Positions 22,262 through 34,641 of a stretch of 35,851 nucleotides of DNA are shown one piece after another (within the stretch, counting starts at the first letter, position 1; every line of letters begins with the position of its first letter). The notes below the pieces were generated by a model. The model was not told the origin of the DNA. It worked only from the letters and a program-made list of their open reading frames with translations, and did not search any database. This DNA comes from a virus. Made by a program: the position numbers and the translations under genes. The DNA lies in the UHGV virus genome UHGV-0135983; one strand, given 5' to 3'.

Positions 22262-22295
22262 CAAAAGAAAACCGCCATTTCTGGCGGTTCTGTTT
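22262..22295 (-). terminator. intrinsic terminator (hairpin with T-runs on both strands)
   Basis: ACCGCCATTTCTGGCGGT hairpin; - strand followed by TTTTCTTTTG, + strand by TTCTGTTTTAT. Confidence 0.5.
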
Positions 22296-25217: not shown

Positions 25218-25886
25218 TTATGCCCTCTTGTTCTTCGCTGACTCGATGTAATAACGGGGATCAACGCTGTTAAGCGTGAAGTGAACCACCGGCATATCGT
25301 CGTGACGGGTGATACCCACGTAATTCGACATGAACATGCCGAACACGCGATCGTGAAGTTCTTTAATCGTCACCTGACAATCTGGATAGTGCTTCTGGAT
25401 TAATGCCAGGATGCCCTGGTAAGAAAGCGTTTTGCCTTTCATCACGGCTACCAGCTGCTGCGCGGTGACGCTCCCGGCGTCCTGCTGTTCGTCGCTGGCC
25501 TGCAATGGGCGGATACTCTCCAGCACCAGACGGTGACGGCCAATACTGCCGACGCGCTGGCCCGTTTTTTTATCGAAATGCTCATTGGAGCCAGCAGACC
25601 AGACGGTCGCACCTTCGCTAAGGCGAACGCTTTTTTCACCTCTGGAATAAATCACGGTGCCGATGTGGGTTTTACGCCTGCGGCCGGAAACCGTAGGGGC
25701 GATAATTTCACGCTTAATCGGTTTTTGCGGGGTGATGCCGGGTACAGGGGCCGGACGTGGCGCCGCTACGAACACGGAACGGCTACGGGCGCGCGCGCCG
25801 GCGTTCATGCGCCAGAGAATAACGGGGAGCCAGTTGCAGCCATCATCCGGTTTTACTGGTTTTGGGTAATTTAAATTCGTGGTCAT
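25218..25886 (-). CDS. hypothetical protein (early region)
   Basis: 222 aa; start codon directly preceded by CCGAGGAAAGACCA. Confidence 0.5.
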   Translation of the reverse strand: MTTNLNYPKPVKPDDGCNWLPVILWRMNAGARARSRSVFVAAPRPAPVPGITPQKPIKREIIAPTVSGRRRKTHIGTVIYSRGEKSVRLSEGATVWSAGSNEHFDKKTGQRVGSIGRHRLVLESIRPLQASDEQQDAGSVTAQQLVAVMKGKTLSYQGILALIQKHYPDCQVTIKELHDRVFGMFMSNYVGITRHDDMPVVHFTLNSVDPRYYIESAKNKRA

Positions 25887-25924
25887 TGGTCTTTCCTCGG
25901 TTAAATCGCGCTGGTCAGGCGCGG

Positions 25925-27331: not shown

Positions 27332-28317
27332 AAAGCGCCCTCCCTGGTCTTACGCAATGTCTCTGGTTTCATCAGATAGTCAAAGCTGGCGCGCCATCCG
27401 CCATTTTCACCAAAGTAAAAATCGGAGGCGTCAGCGCGGAATTTTTCGAAATAGCCCAGAAATGCGCCCGTGGTTTTGTTTTTCATATGGGCGGCCAGAC
27501 GGGTGATCATCCGGCGGCGGTCTGTGTCCAGTTCAGCAGCAGGCAGAACGTCAGCAAAAATTTCGTTGTAGCCGTTCATAACGGCTTCCGGATCAATATC
27601 GGTTTCGGTCACCGCCCATGCTTCAGCGTCAGCGAGATAACCATCAAAGCGGTTTACCCGGCAGATGTTCGCTGGCTTCGGCAGGCTATCGCCACGGCGG
27701 CGCCATGTGGCCAGCACCCAGCGGATAACTAACTGCAATTCGTCCAGGGTGTACCCTTCCCGGGTGGTGGTCGGCGTCAGCATCATCACAAACGGTTTCA
27801 GGTCACGGCAGCGGGTACCGGTTTGCTCGTTGTAAAATTCCAGCGCTTTTTTAGCATCAGAATTAATTTTTTCATCGCCTTCCCCCGTCTGGGGGTTAGG
27901 GGGATCTTTAGGTTCTATGACTGGTTCAAAAGAGTGACTGGTTCTGGTGCCGCCACACGGCATAGGGGCTATGCTTTTTGGCGGCATACCTGTGCTTTCT
28001 GACGGCATAGGGGCTATGCTTTTTGGCGGCATAGGGTTATCAAGTTTCATACAGTACAAATTCGACGCGTTACCCTTCCCGTTTTTTACGCCCGGGCGAT
28101 TTTCTTTCACCAGCAGGCCCATGGAAATTAACGCATCGATATGGTCACGCACCGCGCTTTTGCTGCACTCGCAGTGATCCGCAATATGTTTGTAAGACGG
28201 CCAGCATTCGCCGTAATCATTGGCGTTATCAGCCAGTTTGATCAGCACCAGTTTTCGAATCGGGTTTCCGGTCTTGATTGCCATTGCTTTGGCCATAAGC
28301 GTCATACTCATAGTCAA
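27328..28317 (-). CDS. replication initiation protein (HTH N-terminus, lambda O-like role)
   Basis: 329 aa; N-terminal HTH-like region; internal peptide repeat PMPPKSIAPMP x2 coinciding with DNA iterons; conserved phage replication C-terminal region. Confidence 0.7.
   Translation of the reverse strand: MTMSMTLMAKAMAIKTGNPIRKLVLIKLADNANDYGECWPSYKHIADHCECSKSAVRDHIDALISMGLLVKENRPGVKNGKGNASNLYCMKLDNPMPPKSIAPMPSESTGMPPKSIAPMPCGGTRTSHSFEPVIEPKDPPNPQTGEGDEKINSDAKKALEFYNEQTGTRCRDLKPFVMMLTPTTTREGYTLDELQLVIRWVLATWRRRGDSLPKPANICRVNRFDGYLADAEAWAVTETDIDPEAVMNGYNEIFADVLPAAELDTDRRRMITRLAAHMKNKTTGAFLGYFEKFRADASDFYFGENGGWRASFDYLMKPETLRKTREGAL
27958..28037. repeat. iteron-like direct repeats inside the initiator gene (candidate ori)
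   Basis: CGGCATA core at 27958, 27982, 28003, 28027 (21-24 bp spacing); two ~31-bp units CGGCATAGGGGCTATGCTTTTTGGCGGCATA. Confidence 0.6.
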
Positions 28318-28535
28318 ATCCCCAGCGAGTCAGCCAACTGACGGCAGGCGATTTCGTATTCTTTCTGGGTGAGTCCCGCTTCCTGCAGGTCTGCCTTGCG
28401 CAGTTCATAGCGTTCCCAGATTGTCAGCGCAGTAGCGCGACGCTCTTCGAAAATCGATTCGATATCTTCCATCGGGACTTGTACCCCGTTCCGGCGAAAC
28501 CCATTCCGCCAGGTGATGCGGTCTTGTGTTCTCAT
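28314..28535 (-). CDS. hypothetical small protein
   Basis: 73 aa from MRTQDRITWRNGF; ATG directly preceded by CCGAGGAAAGACCA; the longer 162-aa ORF to 28802 would overlap the YdaT-like gene. Confidence 0.5.
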   Translation of the reverse strand: MRTQDRITWRNGFRRNGVQVPMEDIESIFEERRATALTIWERYELRKADLQEAGLTQKEYEIACRQLADSLGI

Positions 28536-28555
28536 TGGTCTTTCCTCGGTACAGG

Positions 28556-29064: not shown

Positions 29065-29262
29065 TTATGCTTTAGACGTGTTTTGCTCTTCGTAAAAAGT
29101 AGGGTCGTATTTCAAGGCGCCTGCAGTTACATGCTCAAGTCGCGCAGCTCGCTTTTCAGGAACAACAGCACCCCAGCGGGTTACAGCGACTTGAGAGATA
29201 CCTAATGCACGCGCAACAGCGGTTTTAGTTCCAAAAAATCTGATAACAGTTTCGGTCTTCAT
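29065..29262 (-). CDS. Cro/YdaS-like HTH regulator
   Basis: 65 aa; HTH AVARALGISQVAVTRW; AGGAG RBS; divergent from repressor gene. Confidence 0.7.
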   Translation of the reverse strand: MKTETVIRFFGTKTAVARALGISQVAVTRWGAVVPEKRAARLEHVTAGALKYDPTFYEEQNTSKA

Positions 29263-29330
29263 AGTTTCCTCTCCTAACGTCAGTTAGGAACATAAATACT
29301 AACGAAAGTTATGTCAAGTTAACTTATATT
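29263..29330. promoter_or_regulatory. immunity switch region: operator palindromes and divergent promoters
   Basis: Palindromes TAACGTCAGTTA (29276..29287), TAACGAAAGTTA (29300..29311), AAGTTAACTT (29316..29325); - strand TTGACA (29312..29317) 17 nt from TATGTT (29289..29294); + strand TATATT (29325..29330) just before the repressor start. Confidence 0.6.
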
Positions 29331-29744
29331 ATGGACATGAAAAAATTGACCTTTAACGATCGCATTACATCGAGACGGAAAGAGCTTGGCTTAACCCAAC
29401 AGCAGCTCGCCGATGCCGTTGGCATATCTGGCGTAAGCGTCTACAAGTGGGAAGCAGGTATTAACACCCCAAAAGGGCAAAATCTGTTTTCTCTCGCTGA
29501 GGCTCTTCGTTGCTCTCCGACATGGTTACTTAACGGAACCGATAGCGATGAACCGTTGAAGGCGGAAGACCTTTTACCTCGGTTAGATGATCGCCAAAAG
29601 CTATTGCTTGATCTTTTTGACTCCCTACCTGAATCAGAAAAAGATAGACACATCAATGAGTTGAAAGATAAAGTTGACGGATTCCAGCGATTGTTTGATG
29701 AGTTACTTTTGGTAAAAAAGAAAAAAAACACTCCAAAAAAATAA
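29331..29744 (+). CDS. CI/RacR-like repressor (HTH_XRE, no S24 peptidase domain)
   Basis: 137 aa; HTH LGLTQQQLADAVGISGVSVYKWEAG; possibly leaderless from the ATG at 29337. Confidence 0.75.
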   Translation: MDMKKLTFNDRITSRRKELGLTQQQLADAVGISGVSVYKWEAGINTPKGQNLFSLAEALRCSPTWLLNGTDSDEPLKAEDLLPRLDDRQKLLLDLFDSLPESEKDRHINELKDKVDGFQRLFDELLLVKKKKNTPKK

Positions 29745-29750
29745 ATTAAA

Positions 29751-29780
29751 GGCAATGTTTTCAATGCATTGCCTTTTTTT
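29751..29780 (+). terminator. intrinsic terminator after repressor gene
   Basis: GGCAATG...CATTGCC hairpin followed by TTTTTTT. Confidence 0.6.
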
Positions 29781-29793
29781 ACACCTCAAATAT

Positions 29794-29844
29794 TAACTTT
29801 TGTTAGTAAAAAATATTGCCAATAAAAATACCTTTGGTTATGCT
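29794..29844 (+). promoter_or_regulatory. operator-like palindrome plus sigma70-like promoter
   Basis: TAACTTTTGTTA (29794..29805) matches the TAAC-N4-GTTA pattern; TTGCCA (29816..29821), 17-nt spacer, TATGCT (29839..29844). Confidence 0.45.
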
Positions 29845-29926
29845 TCATCACATCAACGACGCACTAACCACGCGGCAGTTGTTCAGAAACGTTCCGCCGA
29901 CCCGGCGTTAAGGGGGAGGAGAAGTG

Positions 29927-30145
29927 ATGGAAAACGCTGTATTAGGTGCCGTCGGACCAACGCTGAATGTGTTGCTGGATGCACTGAAAGAAGAGAAAGG
30001 AGCCGCCAACGTCGAGGACGTCAAAGCGGTCATCCAGGTTATCAGTGAAGTTGTAGGCAAGTGCGATGGTGATCTGGCTACTGGTTACGCGGTTTGGGAT
30101 GAACTGCTGAATGCGGTGTTACGACATATTTCGACAAAGGGTTAA
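29927..30145 (+). CDS. hypothetical small acidic protein
   Basis: 72 aa; GGGGGAGGA RBS 6 nt upstream of ATG. Confidence 0.5.
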   Translation: MENAVLGAVGPTLNVLLDALKEEKGAANVEDVKAVIQVISEVVGKCDGDLATGYAVWDELLNAVLRHISTKG

Positions 30146-30320
30146 GGCTAATACCCTCTGGTGGGTATAACTCTCGATTGATTCTCACGACTGCTGACAT
30201 GAAATCTACACGGTTATCAATCGGCATCGTAGACAAAATTACTGTCAATAATACCTGGTGTGCTTTCAGCTCTTCTCTGACTGCAGCTAGCTCAGATTTA
30301 AGTTGTTCAAGTTCCGACAT
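30078..30320 (-). CDS. hypothetical small protein (antisense/convergent to 29927..30145)
   Basis: 81 aa from MSELEQLKSELAAVREEL, AAGGGA RBS; 3' end overlaps the + strand gene by 68 nt; uncertain which is expressed. Confidence 0.35.
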   Translation of the reverse strand: MSELEQLKSELAAVREELKAHQVLLTVILSTMPIDNRVDFMSAVVRINRELYPPEGISLNPLSKYVVTPHSAVHPKPRNQ

Positions 30321-30426
30321 TTGTAATCCCTTTTGCTGTTGTTGGAATGGCAAAGGTAGCACGACCGGGCGTGTTGAAAAATCCCGGAACTGAATTCTTC
30401 GGGTCGCCGACAGTACGATGACATGC

Positions 30427-30769
30427 GGGAAAGACCGCAACGAACATCCATTGCTGTGTGTAGTCTTGGCCGGGCGCCCCGGGCATTTTTTTAACACAGT
30501 AACGATTTATGCGACCCTTCAGTGAAAACTGAAGCCCTCGAAAAGAGGGACCCCGTGAGGAAAGACCAGTGAGCCTGACCAGCTCTGGCGCCGGGAAAGA
30601 CCGGGAGGAAAGACCAATGACCTACGGGCATGACCAGCCCTGACAGCCGGGAAAGACCGGCAACCTTTAGATGGCAAAAGGCCCGCACAAGGCGGGCCAG
30701 TTACCCCGAACGGTGACCAAACCATTCGGACTTATCACAAGCGACCAAGCTTGTGATGAGGAAAGACCA
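30427..30769 (+). repeat. cluster of six GGAAAGACC motifs in apparently non-coding DNA
   Basis: GAGGAAAGACCA at 30557, 30605, 30758 (each followed by GTG/ATG and a short in-frame ORF); GGGAAAGACC at 30427, 30593, 30649; 22-bp inverted repeat TCACAAGC-N6-GCTTGTGA at 30735..30756. Confidence 0.6.
30463..30490 (+). terminator. putative intrinsic terminator
   Basis: GC-rich hairpin CCGGGCGCCCCGGG followed by T7 run. Confidence 0.5.
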
Positions 30770-30824
30770 ATGCCGACAGAGTCAACACTGATCGGCTCTG
30801 AGTATACATCAACAAGGAGTCGCT

Positions 30825-31148
30825 ATGGAAGCGCTTACCATCCCCGTGAAGCTGTACATTCACTACATCACCAACACTTTCTCATCCGATAAATATCACG
30901 TTTCAATCTGTGACATGTCACGGAACCACCCGGACATTTATGTGCTGCTGGAAACGCGTGATATCACCATCGATATAAACCAGCCGGAACCCTTCGACCT
31001 TATAGCCTTGCAGGTTGACCAGCTGCGCAGCCAGAAAGAAAACCTTGCTGCCGACGCTCAACGCCAGATCGCCGCGGTCGATGACAAAATTCAGCAGCTG
31101 CTTTGCATCGATCATTCTCAGATTGAAGAAAGTGATATTCCCTTCTGA
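30825..31148 (+). CDS. hypothetical protein (first gene of recombination operon)
   Basis: 107 aa; AAGGAG RBS 6 nt upstream. Confidence 0.5.
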   Translation: MEALTIPVKLYIHYITNTFSSDKYHVSICDMSRNHPDIYVLLETRDITIDINQPEPFDLIALQVDQLRSQKENLAADAQRQIAAVDDKIQQLLCIDHSQIEESDIPF

Positions 31149-31401: not shown

Positions 31402-31430
31402 CCTGCGCCAGTAACTAAGAGGAAAGACCA

Positions 31431-33650
31431 ATGACCATCTACAACGGCTTATTTGAGCCAAAGAAATCGGCGATTAAAGACTGCGGCGCCGTGCAGCTGG
31501 CGATCGCCATCGATGCGCCAAACAAAAAAGTGGCCGAAAGCATTATGACCGGCAAACTCTGGGAATCATACCCGGCCAATGGTGACAACTATTTCAAACC
31601 GAAACTGTGGGAACACGTTGAAGGCCAGCCGCTGCCGACCGTTGGCCAGTTCGATGAGTCATTCGCCCAGCAGCATACTTTTGACGGTGAAAAATGGGTT
31701 TCTACTGCGCAGGATAGCGCTTCCGGAAGCAGTGCAGGTTTACCTGCCGACGATGAAGTGATCGACCTGATGACCGTTTCCGCAGAGGAACGCTTTGCTG
31801 CCGTCCTGCTTTTTAGCACCGCTGCGATTGATGGCCATCTTTATTCTCAGGTTGTGGATTATCTGGATAACCTGAAAAACCACGATGGCGAATTTGAAGA
31901 GGAAGATCGCTTTAACTTTAATGTGCTGTGCGCCCTACAAAATAACTTCCCGGTTCAAAGCATGCATGTGGAAGGTCTGAATAACCTTGTTCAGGGGATT
32001 TTCTCCCACTTTGAAAACCAGACGCCAGGCAAAGCGGCTATCTCTCAGTTCGTTAAACGCTGGCTTGAGAATCCGGGCAAGCGCGACGAACTGGCCCCCG
32101 GCGTATATAAAAATACCGCTCTCAGCACCAGCACCAGCACCAGCACCGATGATAAAACACCCGTGGTAATTTCTAAGCGGGGTTATAAACACACATATGC
32201 AACGCTGGATCAGGAGATCGCTACCGCCCTTCTCCCGCTGGCGCCTGATGCGCCGGTACTATCCGGAAACCTTCTGGACGCTAAGAAGATGATTGCCGAT
32301 GACCGGGAAGATTTTAAACGCTGGTCTGCATCGCTGCACACCACTCCGCAGATACTCAAATATGACCGCGCCAGCATCTTCGGTGTAGTGCAGAACGTAC
32401 CGGCGAAAGATACCTACCATTTCCCTGACAGCCTGCGCCGCCATATCGATTCATGGCTGGAGGCCAACGGCCGCTTTGAAGAAACCGATACAGGATCCGT
32501 TAAACAGACAGAGGCAACGCAAAATATCGCCTCAAACGTGGGCGAAAAAGCGGAAGTGCCGCAGACGGTTGTAACCGATAACCAAGCGAAACAGGCGCGT
32601 GAGGCGCTCAACGATATGGGCTATGGCGTATATGCATCTGGTGAAGGTGCGGAACCGGAAGATAAGTTAAGCGTTAAGGCTGAGAAAATAGCAGATGAAG
32701 CTGCTCGTTTGTCTCGTGATATTAACCTCAAAGATCGCATGCCAGATGCCGGAGATTTGATTCCAGCAATTCAACCAAATGAAAATATAGCCTCAAAAAA
32801 AATTGAATCATATCTATCTGAATTGAATGACGACCAGGCCAAAGCAAACCTTAGCGTCTGGAATCGCGTCCAGCGCACAGATCCGGCCTTCGTCGAAAAG
32901 AACAGTTTCGGCGCAGGGCTTCACTCAATCCGGGCGCAGTACATGCTGATGCGCGCAACGGAAGTTCTCGGAATGGAAGGAACCGGTTGGGGCGTTGATA
33001 TCAAAGAAGAGCGCATAGATCGAGGTGTGCCGCTTATGGAGCCAATACAGGACCAATCAGGAAAAATAATTGGCCAGAAACCGGTAAGGGACGGGGATGG
33101 CTCATTATTCTGTTTATCCGTACATACAATTCGGATTGAACTCTGGTACCTGCGAGACGGAAAGAAGGGGCGCATTCCGGCCTATGGACATACGGATTAC
33201 ATCACCAAGGGTGGTGATGGTGCATTAAAAATGGAGAAAGAAGCCGCCAAAAAATCACTGACTGACGCTACAACCAAAGCACTATCCCATCTCGGATTTG
33301 GTGCAGACGTGTACATGAACATGCATAACGACAACGAATACACTTCAAAATTGAATGAGATATTCGAAATCAAAAAAGCCAGCGAAAGCATAGAAGATAT
33401 AGTGCGACTTCGTCAGGAATTAGACGACGATCTTACCTCCGTTGCTGAAACCCTATCTACTGGCGTGACTGTTAACGAAGTTGAAAAGGTTTTTGGCACG
33501 ATAGCCCGAAAACTCGAAGTTCACCGCAAGGATGCAGAATCAAAAGGCGATACACAGCGCTCTCGGTACCTCAGTGGCCGGTTGCGCCGCCTGACTGAAA
33601 TCAAAAATGGACGTCTCGCCGAACTAAATAAATCCGAGGAGAAAGCATAA
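31431..33650 (+). CDS. Erf-family single-strand annealing protein with ~480-aa N-terminal extension
   Basis: 739 aa; C-terminal region has Erf-like blocks NSFGAGLHSIRAQYM and KALSHLGFGADVY (cf. P22 Erf NSFGKYKYR / LNGLFGIDD); start preceded by GAGGAAAGACCA; (AGCACC)x4 encodes an STSTSTST linker. Confidence 0.6.
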   Translation: MTIYNGLFEPKKSAIKDCGAVQLAIAIDAPNKKVAESIMTGKLWESYPANGDNYFKPKLWEHVEGQPLPTVGQFDESFAQQHTFDGEKWVSTAQDSASGSSAGLPADDEVIDLMTVSAEERFAAVLLFSTAAIDGHLYSQVVDYLDNLKNHDGEFEEEDRFNFNVLCALQNNFPVQSMHVEGLNNLVQGIFSHFENQTPGKAAISQFVKRWLENPGKRDELAPGVYKNTALSTSTSTSTDDKTPVVISKRGYKHTYATLDQEIATALLPLAPDAPVLSGNLLDAKKMIADDREDFKRWSASLHTTPQILKYDRASIFGVVQNVPAKDTYHFPDSLRRHIDSWLEANGRFEETDTGSVKQTEATQNIASNVGEKAEVPQTVVTDNQAKQAREALNDMGYGVYASGEGAEPEDKLSVKAEKIADEAARLSRDINLKDRMPDAGDLIPAIQPNENIASKKIESYLSELNDDQAKANLSVWNRVQRTDPAFVEKNSFGAGLHSIRAQYMLMRATEVLGMEGTGWGVDIKEERIDRGVPLMEPIQDQSGKIIGQKPVRDGDGSLFCLSVHTIRIELWYLRDGKKGRIPAYGHTDYITKGGDGALKMEKEAAKKSLTDATTKALSHLGFGADVYMNMHNDNEYTSKLNEIFEIKKASESIEDIVRLRQELDDDLTSVAETLSTGVTVNEVEKVFGTIARKLEVHRKDAESKGDTQRSRYLSGRLRRLTEIKNGRLAELNKSEEKA

Positions 33651-34446: not shown

Positions 34447-34641
34447 ATGCTGCGATGGCAACCGGGAGCTGTATTGCTCTCAGATTTCGATATCAAGATT
34501 GGCCGGTTATCCGCCAGCGTACGAAAGAAGACCCTGACCAGGACTGAAATCGAACGCGCATGCGAAGAAGCTGATAACGCGATCGCCGGCATGATGAGGA
34601 AAGACCATGGTCAGAAAAAACGACCTTCTCACCGACGCTGA
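34447..34641 (+). CDS. hypothetical small basic protein
   Basis: 64 aa from MLRWQPGAV; ACGGAG RBS; overlaps next gene start. Confidence 0.3.
   Translation: MLRWQPGAVLLSDFDIKIGRLSASVRKKTLTRTEIERACEEADNAIAGMMRKDHGQKKRPSHRR

Follow-up and report, generated by a model that had tools for sequence, protein, structure and literature searches.

A prophage early-left leader with predicted small RNA elements on both strands and repeated copies of a ribosome-binding-site box

The 35,851-bp stretch of the virus genome UHGV-0135983 analysed here (the window) contains, at positions 30146-30824, an interval in which the short repeat GGAAAGACC occurs six times. Because a DicA/DicC region lies upstream of this interval and the exonuclease, excisionase (xis) and int genes lie downstream, it is to be regarded as part of the leader of the early-left operon. 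We propose that the leader carries two small RNA (sRNA) elements on opposite strands, that the antisense sRNA silences in trans four genes bearing the repeat-containing box at their ribosome-binding sites (RBSs), and that the leader copies of the box act as decoys; judging from the sequence, we put the probability of this reading at about one half. The array would then reflect overlapping sRNA elements on both strands, beyond a simple repeat array. The initial annotation of the interval had listed the repeats and several signals around them and had suggested a structured regulatory RNA, decoy initiation sites or leader peptides; its observations are partly confirmed and its interpretation is partly supported.

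The over-representation of the repeat is strong. The window holds 10 copies against 0.29 expected, a number reached in none of 100 shuffles, and the six in the interval, all on the plus strand between 30428 and 30768, are those that had been counted before. Copies 2, 4 and 6 are linear and read GAGGAAAGACCA followed by GTG or ATG, which opens frames of 24, 8 and 40 codons (boxes 30557, 30605 and 30758 in that order), also as described initially. Copies 1, 3 and 5 form hairpins of the pattern NNNNG-GAAAGA-CNNNN. To follow these elements in relatives, viral-contig DNA was scanned with an 18-mer from the leader start, yielding 111 stretches, which together with loci fetched earlier gave 100 unique leaders of 366-1349 nt; a scan of the genome collection with the 107-aa protein encoded by the first gene of the operon returned three loci only. 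The GGAAAGACC repeats are kept in these 100 distinct leaders. Among them, GAAAGA-loop hairpins number 290 and show 20 different stems, always with a G-C closing pair; a GACCAA loop is found on 107 hairpins, which use 10 stem sequences, and further leader hairpins carry a (Y)UGACCA loop. Similar hairpins, some with variant loops, are found 8-14 nt 5' of box-type RBSs at real gene junctions, where the stems change on both arms; the box of the exonuclease gene, for example, is preceded by GGCGC-CUGACCU-GCGCC. On this comparative evidence we take the leader hairpins to be real. The non-Watson-Crick pairs of the upstream GAAAGA hairpins fit the plus strand (G.U in 11 cases versus 2).

The observation that the 12-mer also serves as the ribosome-binding context of real genes holds for four genes of the window, two on each strand (Table 1), at which the box has the near-invariant form GAGGAAAGACCA(A)UG. 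Orthologues were counted by protein sequence, not by motif, and the exact box was then sought upstream: it is present in 93 of 106 orthologues of the 739-aa exonuclease gene, 30 of 31 of the excisionase gene, all 106 of the gene for a 73-aa protein that follows the CII-like YdaT gene in the early-right operon, and 46 of 57 of the gene for a 222-aa protein that follows DnaB. The 107-aa gene has it in 0 of 107. In the complete genome of the related phage BUCT709 the boxes stand at early genes only, save two copies within coding sequences and not at an RBS, and several boxes per contig were seen only in this prophage family. The 73-aa protein of the early-right operon (28314-28535, minus strand; phrog_2465), whose RBS is always of the box type, has the invariant N-terminal motif DRITWRNG[FW]xxNG.

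The predicted antisense sRNA of ~117-119 nt occupies the 3' part of the interval on the minus strand. It would comprise a 5' hairpin, a single-stranded seed, UUUCCUC, two stem-loops that both expose a UUGGUC loop, an A/U-rich spacer and a terminator. Its first stem-loop is the perfect 22-bp inverted repeat which the initial annotation had noticed next to the last repeat copy. The most conserved block just 5' of the RBS of the 107-aa gene is GAGTATACAT, which on the minus strand reads TATACT, a putative -10 element; among the 100 unique leaders this hexamer is TATACT in 82 and TATAAT in 18, and its flanks vary. In every one of them the complement of the box (the anti-box) follows 20-45 nt past the -10, and a GC hairpin with U4-U7 stands at 112-160 nt; the U run of the GC hairpin at 30680-98 is found on the minus strand only and is U4 here and U6-7 in others. 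The stems were assessed in a minus-strand alignment of 39 distinct sequences. The two stem-loops are 97% paired, compared with 42-53% after a shift of the partners by 1-3 columns, and compensatory changes occur in 10 of 18 pairs; the covariation score is 0.454 versus 0.244 in shuffles, none of 500 of which attained it. Where the GACCAA hairpins depart from Watson-Crick pairing, the pair is G.U if read on the minus strand in 31 cases and if read on the plus strand in 1; it is therefore as minus-strand RNA that these stems are constrained. In 50 unique sRNAs the probability of being unpaired exceeds 0.9 for the seed and for both loops. At the level of sequence, the minus strand evidently holds a conserved RNA structure, together with promoter-like and terminator elements. 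A second promoter-like site on this strand, GTGACA-18-GATATT (30892-30921), lies inside the 107-aa gene and could yield a longer antisense RNA covering the start of that gene.

The nearest known RNA appears to be IsrB of the Salmonella prophages Gifsy-1 and Gifsy-2. IsrB was mapped experimentally as an 88/94-nt RNA by Northern blot and primer extension (PMC2330248). A covariance model built from our own alignment, R1, gives 112 bits in the window and picks up the Gifsy-2 IsrB locus at E 0.004. Genuine Gifsy-2 IsrB (99.3 bits with the Rfam model) is encoded on the antisense strand in the gap that separates STM1010 from the exonuclease VIII gene. We read its -10 as TAGAAT; this hexamer lies 6 nt 5' of the 5' end mapped for the 94-nt form, and ~20 nt separate it from the start codon of the exonuclease. 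The RNA predicted here shares this geometry: it too runs against a lambdoid early-left operon just 5' of the exonuclease region, its -10 stands at a similar distance from the start of the next sense gene (~20 nt by our own reading of the Gifsy-2 sequence), and it ends in a Rho-independent terminator. Both RNAs also have a stem-loop whose loop reads UUUGGUC and a terminator of the form GCCCACUUCGGUGGGC, and the full-length isrB alignments obtained in relatives include these two elements. The difference lies in a ~45-nt 5' extension with the anti-box and in a second UUGGUC loop. In the R1 alignment Gifsy-2 CAUUGUUUUGUCCUC stands opposite CAUUGGUCUUUCCUC, the anti-box, and the exonuclease VIII RBS, GAGGACAAAACAAUG, is the homologue of repeat copy 6. 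The Gifsy-2 sequence just 5' of the IsrB start (L215 5936-5992) is the complement of this RBS, which matches the box of the present family at 12 of 15 positions; the anti-box extension thus seems to be the product of an antisense promoter that moved further upstream. We consider the window RNA to be a distant relative of IsrB and not a member of RF01386.

The seed and the adjoining 3' arm of the 5' hairpin together make up the anti-box CAUUGGUCUUUCCUC, which complements GAGGAAAGACCAAUG at every position. When duplex energies were predicted for the anti-box region against every 36-nt window on both strands of the whole 35.9-kb window, the boxes accounted for seven of the nine best non-overlapping sites, the background being -12.7 +/- 3.9 kcal/mol. 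Six of these are trans boxes with -28.5 to -34.7 kcal/mol and the seventh is the cis template. The complementarity extends to the hairpins: the GAAAGA loops complement UCUUUC of the anti-box, and GACCAA of the box and UGACCA of the junction loops complement the UUGGUC loops of the sRNA. The ACG variant of the leader box, common in relatives, removes the pseudo start, and the corresponding sRNA (CGU) still pairs with a target AUG via G.U. This network of complementarity is likewise apparent from the sequence itself. A literature search brought nothing relevant on the box or anti-box sequences.

These elements suggest the following scheme. The early-left transcript would begin with its conserved 5' domain and lead into a segment that reproduces the 3' half of RprA, a host sRNA, with its conserved seed and an intrinsic terminator, and RNA that reads through would enter the array of RBS-type boxes and hairpins. 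From the other side, the ~117-nt IsrB-related RNA would be driven by a promoter that shares sequence with the RBS and start codon of the 107-aa gene, and the anti-Shine-Dalgarno part of this RNA, UUUCCUC, would be left single-stranded. This RNA, if made from the predicted start as we infer, would pair in trans with the identical boxes that span the ribosome-binding and start sites of four genes (exonuclease, excisionase, 73-aa and 222-aa) and so block their translation, in both early operons, during prophage quiescence. Once the early-left promoter fires, each leader transcript would offer a perfect cis target, two more linear boxes and three GAAAGA-loop hairpins, and these targets together with convergent transcription could titrate the sRNA and free the early genes; this role of the other leader copies as decoys or a sponge is the more speculative part. 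The six repeats could then be understood as one template copy and five target-like copies of one sRNA recognition box. Thus the idea of a structured regulatory RNA would stand in altered form, as two RNAs on opposite strands, RprA-like on the plus and IsrB-like on the minus strand, and the idea of decoys would stand for the antisense sRNA, to which the boxes are complementary, rather than for ribosomes. A still broader version, possible if on balance doubtful, has a constitutive antisense sRNA silencing the four early genes through their common 15-nt box as an RBS-box regulon, the leader sponge setting an RNA-based lytic threshold upon loss of the repressor and the leader releasing a processed-RprA mimic able to reprogramme RpoS, biofilm or conjugation control at induction.

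A number of observations weigh against this scheme. Complementarity between the sRNA and the boxes is automatic for any RNA antisense to one of them, so that the trans step is a matter of inference, and the core of the box is invariant, which leaves no seed-target covariation to test. The hairpin copies of the repeat have only 6-9 nt complementary to the sRNA, and for the downstream GAAAGA and the UGACCA hairpins the base pairs do not settle which strand is constrained. The existence of the antisense sRNA is supported by conservation, covariation and homology; the promoter scan of the window, however, did not call an antisense promoter, and the start was placed by the -10 alone, the -35 region being poor. 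With the Rfam isrB model (RF01386) the window scores 16.6 bits and two relatives (L006 and L010) 29.7-30.4, all below the gathering score of 35. Gifsy-2 IsrB has no anti-box, nor does Gifsy-2 have a set of box-type RBSs. Finally, since the leader units resemble empty intercistronic junctions and copy 6 is homologous to a real Gifsy-2 RBS, some of the leader copies may be evolutionary leftovers.

The plus-strand element precedes the linear boxes. Its seed ATTGCTGTGTGTAGTCTT is identical at 18 of 18 positions to nt 59-76 of E. coli K-12 RprA in a pairwise alignment, and in one relative (L002) the identity extends to 24 of 24 with a nearly identical terminator; both there and in the window the conserved RprA seed AUUGCUGUGUGUAGUCUUUGCC is followed by a terminator. 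This is the intrinsic terminator that had been indicated at 30463..30490 and that the terminator scan placed at 30468-30492. The likeness to RprA consists of 18-24 contiguous identical nt, AUUGCUGUGUGUAGUCUU[UGCCCA], and a similar terminator, and the preceding hairpin and AACGAA motif also align. Over the full Rfam RprA model (RF00034) the score is 32.6 bits here and 35-50 (max 50.2) in relatives, short of the gathering score of 70; the homology is limited to the 3' half of RprA, and as partial homology it is, on the sequence evidence, well established. The shared seed-terminator stretch corresponds to the processed 47-nt 3' form of RprA, which is active by itself (PMC9262595). Unlike RprA, the phage element has neither the 5' stem-loop nor a promoter of its own, and it sits in an operon leader with the 5' end of which its seed can pair: nt 20-30 of the leader and the seed form an 11-bp helix in RNAalifold, which is open to no covariation test because both sequences are invariant. 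The terminator stems vary freely between relatives. No report of a prophage RprA-like RNA was found in the literature. The box was considered as a target of the RprA-like seed and rejected, since the pairing amounts to GUCUUU:AAAGAC plus two pairs and the boxes are not among the best duplexes of the seed.

Among the other explanations of the array, evolutionary leftovers have to be weighed most closely with the leader units in view. By this account, which we judge unlikely, the box is a strong, recombination-prone RBS and module boundary, the array consists of emptied or duplicated junctions without present function, and the sRNA, if made, acts in cis only or is inactive. The leader units are indeed laid out like real junctions, with a UGACCA-loop hairpin, a spacer and the box, their number changes from 1 to 3 between relatives in leaders that also accept large insertions, start codons decay to ACG or AAG, and copy 6 has a genuine RBS, that of Gifsy-2 exonuclease VIII, as its aligned counterpart. 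Decay of this kind is hard to combine with GAAAGA-loop pairing that is kept through 20 stems, always with G-C closure, with a 12-mer that is near-invariant at four unrelated genes in ~100 phages, far beyond the needs of a Shine-Dalgarno sequence, and with the position of the box complement in the conserved single-stranded part of a conserved antisense RNA. Leader peptides, or ribosome-decoy starts that couple translation to leader transcription, are very improbable. In the window a GTG or ATG does stand at the correct spacing after all three linear boxes; among ~195 boxes of the 100 leaders, though, the triplet after GAGGAAAGACC(A) is ACG in 76, ATG in 65, GTG in 19 and another in ~35, the last box is followed by ACG in 27 of 27 compact leaders, and the would-be peptides are frameshifted or truncated between relatives. 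We reject leader peptides, suggested in the initial annotation, because relatives do not keep a start codon behind the leader boxes.

Processive antitermination of the nut or put type, in which boxB-like hairpins would bind an N-type protein or the 5' domain would modify the polymerase for read-through into the recombination, xis and int operon, is suggested by the conserved strong terminator that lies ~150 nt from the start in compact leaders and 618 nt from it here, by the empty position usually taken by an N gene, and by the hairpin CCCUC-GAAAA-GAGGG (30535-49), whose lambda boxB-like pentaloop is GAAGA or CAAGA in relatives. The conserved RNA also begins at +1, as in HK022 putL (PMC9378689). 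The put RNA of HK022 is, however, a two-stem RNA of ~70 nt at the 5' end of the transcript with a second copy in the early-right operon, and the leader studied here has no sequence similarity to it, another predicted architecture and no early-right counterpart. The compact leaders have no boxB-like hairpin and the early-right operon no GAAAGA hairpins; of the features of a lambda N/nut system the window contains this single lambda-like hairpin, none early-right and no convincing boxA; a scan of all ORFs found no arginine-rich N-like protein, the N-terminus of the sole candidate not being conserved as basic; and the terminator belongs to the RprA homologue. For the 5' domain and its terminator, a role in antitermination is in our view improbable. 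An attenuator with alternative structures is disfavoured because the terminator stem varies freely while the sequence upstream is invariant. The phrog_2465 protein was dismissed as an N analogue, its conserved motif not being arginine-rich, and so was a system of the mEp021 type, which belongs to another phage group without DNA similarity. It is a little less probable still that the array is a protein operator or sponge, i.e., that an RNA-binding protein (RegA-like or coat-protein-like) recognises GGAAAGACC and GACCA in loops and RBSs and is titrated or nucleated by the array. The presentation of the same short motifs both in hairpin loops and linearly at RBSs would suit such a protein; Pfam, PHROGs and NCBIfam offered no candidate among the conserved small early proteins, and complementarity to the antisense RNA is enough to explain the linear box and each of the three kinds of loop, with no protein needed.

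Several further candidates were set aside. The repeat is identical to nt 2056-2064 of E. coli 23S rRNA, the A2058 macrolide/Erm loop and TLR13 ligand, and GACCCCGTGA (23S 2061-2070) adjoins one window copy without being conserved in relatives; in hairpins the repeat also occurs as CGGAAAGACG, and relatives do not keep the 23S-like bases around it, so mimicry was rejected and the identity is in all likelihood coincidental. For the box to pair more extensively with the 3' end or internal sites of 16S rRNA, helix 45 would have to open, which makes this reading unconvincing. The loop sequences, by eye, do not fit CsrA, Hfq (ARN), ANTAR, tRNA-anticodon-mimic, CRISPR-repeat or ToxI-like elements.

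Table 1. Positions of the predicted and observed features in the window; duplex energies are predictions against the anti-box region
Feature	Position	Strand	Remark
Box at RBS of 222-aa gene after DnaB	25884..25898	-	duplex -30.9 kcal/mol
Box at RBS of 73-aa gene after YdaT	28533..28547	-	duplex -28.5 kcal/mol
DicA-family repressor gene	29331-29744		152.8 bits to NCBIfam DicA, cut-off 101
Early-left (pL-like) promoter TTGCCA-17-TATGCT	29816..29844	+	promoter scan; 3' of repressor gene
Conserved leader 5' start ATCAACGACGCACTAACCACGCGGCAGTTGTTCAGAAA	29852..29889	+	begins at predicted transcription start
73-aa ORF in leader	29924..30145	+	ORF list; homologue annotated in E. coli SE11
80-aa gene	30078..30320	-	phrog_20080, E 6.7e-11; recurs in E. 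coli SE11-type prophage
GGAAAGACC copies 1-6	30428, 30559, 30594, 30607, 30650, 30760	+	first positions
Hairpin UGCGG-GAAAGA-CCGCA, copy 1	30424..30439	+	aligns with RprA stem-loop 2
RprA-like element: seed, GC hairpin, U7 terminator	30450..30492	+	terminator 30468-30492
Optional hairpins CUUCAG-UGAAAA-CUGAAG and CCCUC-GAAAA-GAGGG	30517..30549	+	neither in compact leaders
Box GAGGAAAGACCAGUG, copy 2	30557..30571	+	duplex -33.5 kcal/mol
Hairpin GAGC-CUGACCA-GCUC	30571..30585	+	loop type shared with hairpins that precede box-type RBSs of real genes
Hairpin (G)CCGG-GAAAGA-CCGG, copy 3	30590..30604	+
Box GAGGAAAGACCAAUG, copy 4	30605..30619	+	duplex -34.7 kcal/mol
Hairpin GGGC-AUGACCA-GCCC	30626..30640	+
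Hairpin GCCGG-GAAAGA-CCGGC, copy 5	30646..30661	+	stem GCCCG/CGGGC in relatives
Predicted antisense sRNA, IsrB relative	30676..30794	-	~117-119 nt
sRNA terminator	30698-30680	-	followed by U4
sRNA stem-loop 2, loop UUGGUC	30727-30708	-
sRNA stem-loop 1, loop UUGGUC	30756-30735	-	the 22-bp inverted repeat
sRNA single-stranded seed UUUCCUC	complement of 30758-30764	-
Box GAGGAAAGACCAAUG, copy 6, cis site	30758..30772	+	template of 15-nt anti-box; duplex -54.6 kcal/mol
sRNA 5' hairpin	30794-30765	-
Predicted antisense -10 TATACT	30801..30806	-	-35 region overlaps ATG of 107-aa gene
107-aa gene (phrog_2479)	30825..31148	+	first conserved gene past leader; own RBS AAGGAG 30814-30819, no box
Box at RBS of 739-aa exonuclease gene	31419..31433	+	duplex -30.2 kcal/mol
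Box at RBS of excisionase (xis) gene	34596..34609	+	duplex -33.5 kcal/mol

The immunity region (29065-29744) is of the DicA/DicC type, the gene divergent to the repressor being DicC-like, and downstream of the leader the order is the 107-aa gene, an 81-aa gene, the exonuclease gene, a Gp157/Gam-like gene, xis and int. The leader start is invariant in 27 compact leaders irrespective of immunity type, and leaders with differing repressor and operator regions are alike from the transcription start on. In the window, ~500 bp (29890-30391) stand in place of one GAAAGA hairpin of the compact leaders, and the sequence of 29852-29889 continues at 30392; a cassette of two genes, encoding 73 and 80 aa, has been inserted there into the conserved leader. 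The two genes converge and their 3' ends overlap by 68 bp. The 73-aa ORF occupies the ydfA position of the Qin prophage and found no family match in Pfam, PHROGs or NCBIfam, and the 80-aa ORF has a Shine-Dalgarno-like AAAGGGA six bases 5' of its ATG. The statement of the initial annotation that there is no convincing ORF therefore fails for 30146-30320, where the minus-strand 80-aa ORF lies: the interval is not simply non-coding, since the minus strand of its first quarter encodes protein. The early-right operon contains, possibly ahead of the late genes, a hairpin resembling a strong terminator for both directions, AACCGCCATTTCTGGCGGTT (22268-22291), which is flanked by T runs on either side.

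An unannotated leader of 0.4-1.3 kb precedes the 107-aa gene also in BUCT709, in E. coli prophages and in Citrobacter, Enterobacter and E. whittamii. BUCT709 (L001/L011; OM816835, 'Stenotrophomonas phage vB_SmeS_BUCT709') has the gene order of the window in its early region and ~77-90% DNA identity over parts of the leader region; its leader is common to prophages of E. coli, Citrobacter and Enterobacter, and the assignment to a Stenotrophomonas host appears doubtful. The stem of the optional CUUCAG hairpin is altered on both arms in one relative. Two distinct inserts of ~270-310 nt occur in relatives' leaders between the second GAAAGA hairpin and the RprA-like seed, one type in L002 (2640-2950), L003 (2680-2990) and L020 and the other in L001 (3120-3390), L010 (1860-2130) and L005 (2690-2990). 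Both look structured and matched neither Rfam nor tRNA; the L005 insert has the T-arm-like GGTTCGATTCCGGGCGCCCA at its end and is in part similar to Qin sequence 5' of dicF. The window and the leaders of 15 relatives gave no Rfam match at gathering score and no tRNA. On two related viral contigs, far from the leader, sRNA-Xcc1 of Rfam scored above its gathering score (L021 12230-12318 and L071 10882-10970).

The organisation of this leader invites comparison with the DicF/dicB operon of the Qin prophage of E. coli K-12, which has the same DicA/DicC immunity and a homologous leader start, the first bases of our leader resembling the start of the dicB operon, and which carries a terminator-ended sRNA in its untranslated part at the same relative position. 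The seed of DicF differs, and Qin has no boxes; neither DicF (RF00039) nor C4 (RF01695) gave a match, whether at gathering score for the whole window or, over 29700-30900, at E<=10. The RprA-like element thus takes the relative position of DicF (compare ATCAATTTTCTGGTGACG in Qin, L213 1435-3300, with ATCAATTTGCTGTGTTTAG in L005), and DicF and the 3' half of RprA may be alternative 'alleles' of one prophage sRNA slot. Small phage RNAs that pair over an RBS and keep a lytic or early function silent are familiar from C4 of P1 and P7, OOP of lambda and Sar of P22, and the C4 antisense RNA has duplicated target boxes. The RNA predicted here has no sequence or Rfam relationship to any of them and differs in having four predicted target genes in two operons, one box and extra copies in the leader; the finding appears to be a novel variant of known phage antisense control. 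In cluster K mycobacteriophages the start-associated sequences SAS/ESAS, motifs of ~13 nt that include the Shine-Dalgarno sequence, stand just 5' of the starts of a subset of genes, sometimes after an inverted repeat. The box resembles them in being a conserved, Shine-Dalgarno-containing motif just before start codons, whereas sequence and host are unrelated; to our knowledge, the SAS have been linked to no antisense RNA.

If the proposed reading is true, it would provide the first functional hypothesis for IsrB, an experimentally detected family of prophage sRNAs to which the paper that mapped it assigned no function (PMC2330248). It would also give a reason for an over-long RBS motif at several unrelated phage genes, the same puzzle as is posed by the SAS of mycobacteriophages. 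One antisense RNA would govern genes of two operons in trans, with the operon leader as its sponge, and these proposals are open to direct test by standard sRNA genetics. The presence of an RprA seed in prophages of several enterobacterial genera may point either to phage mimicry of host stress signalling or to a prophage origin of part of RprA.

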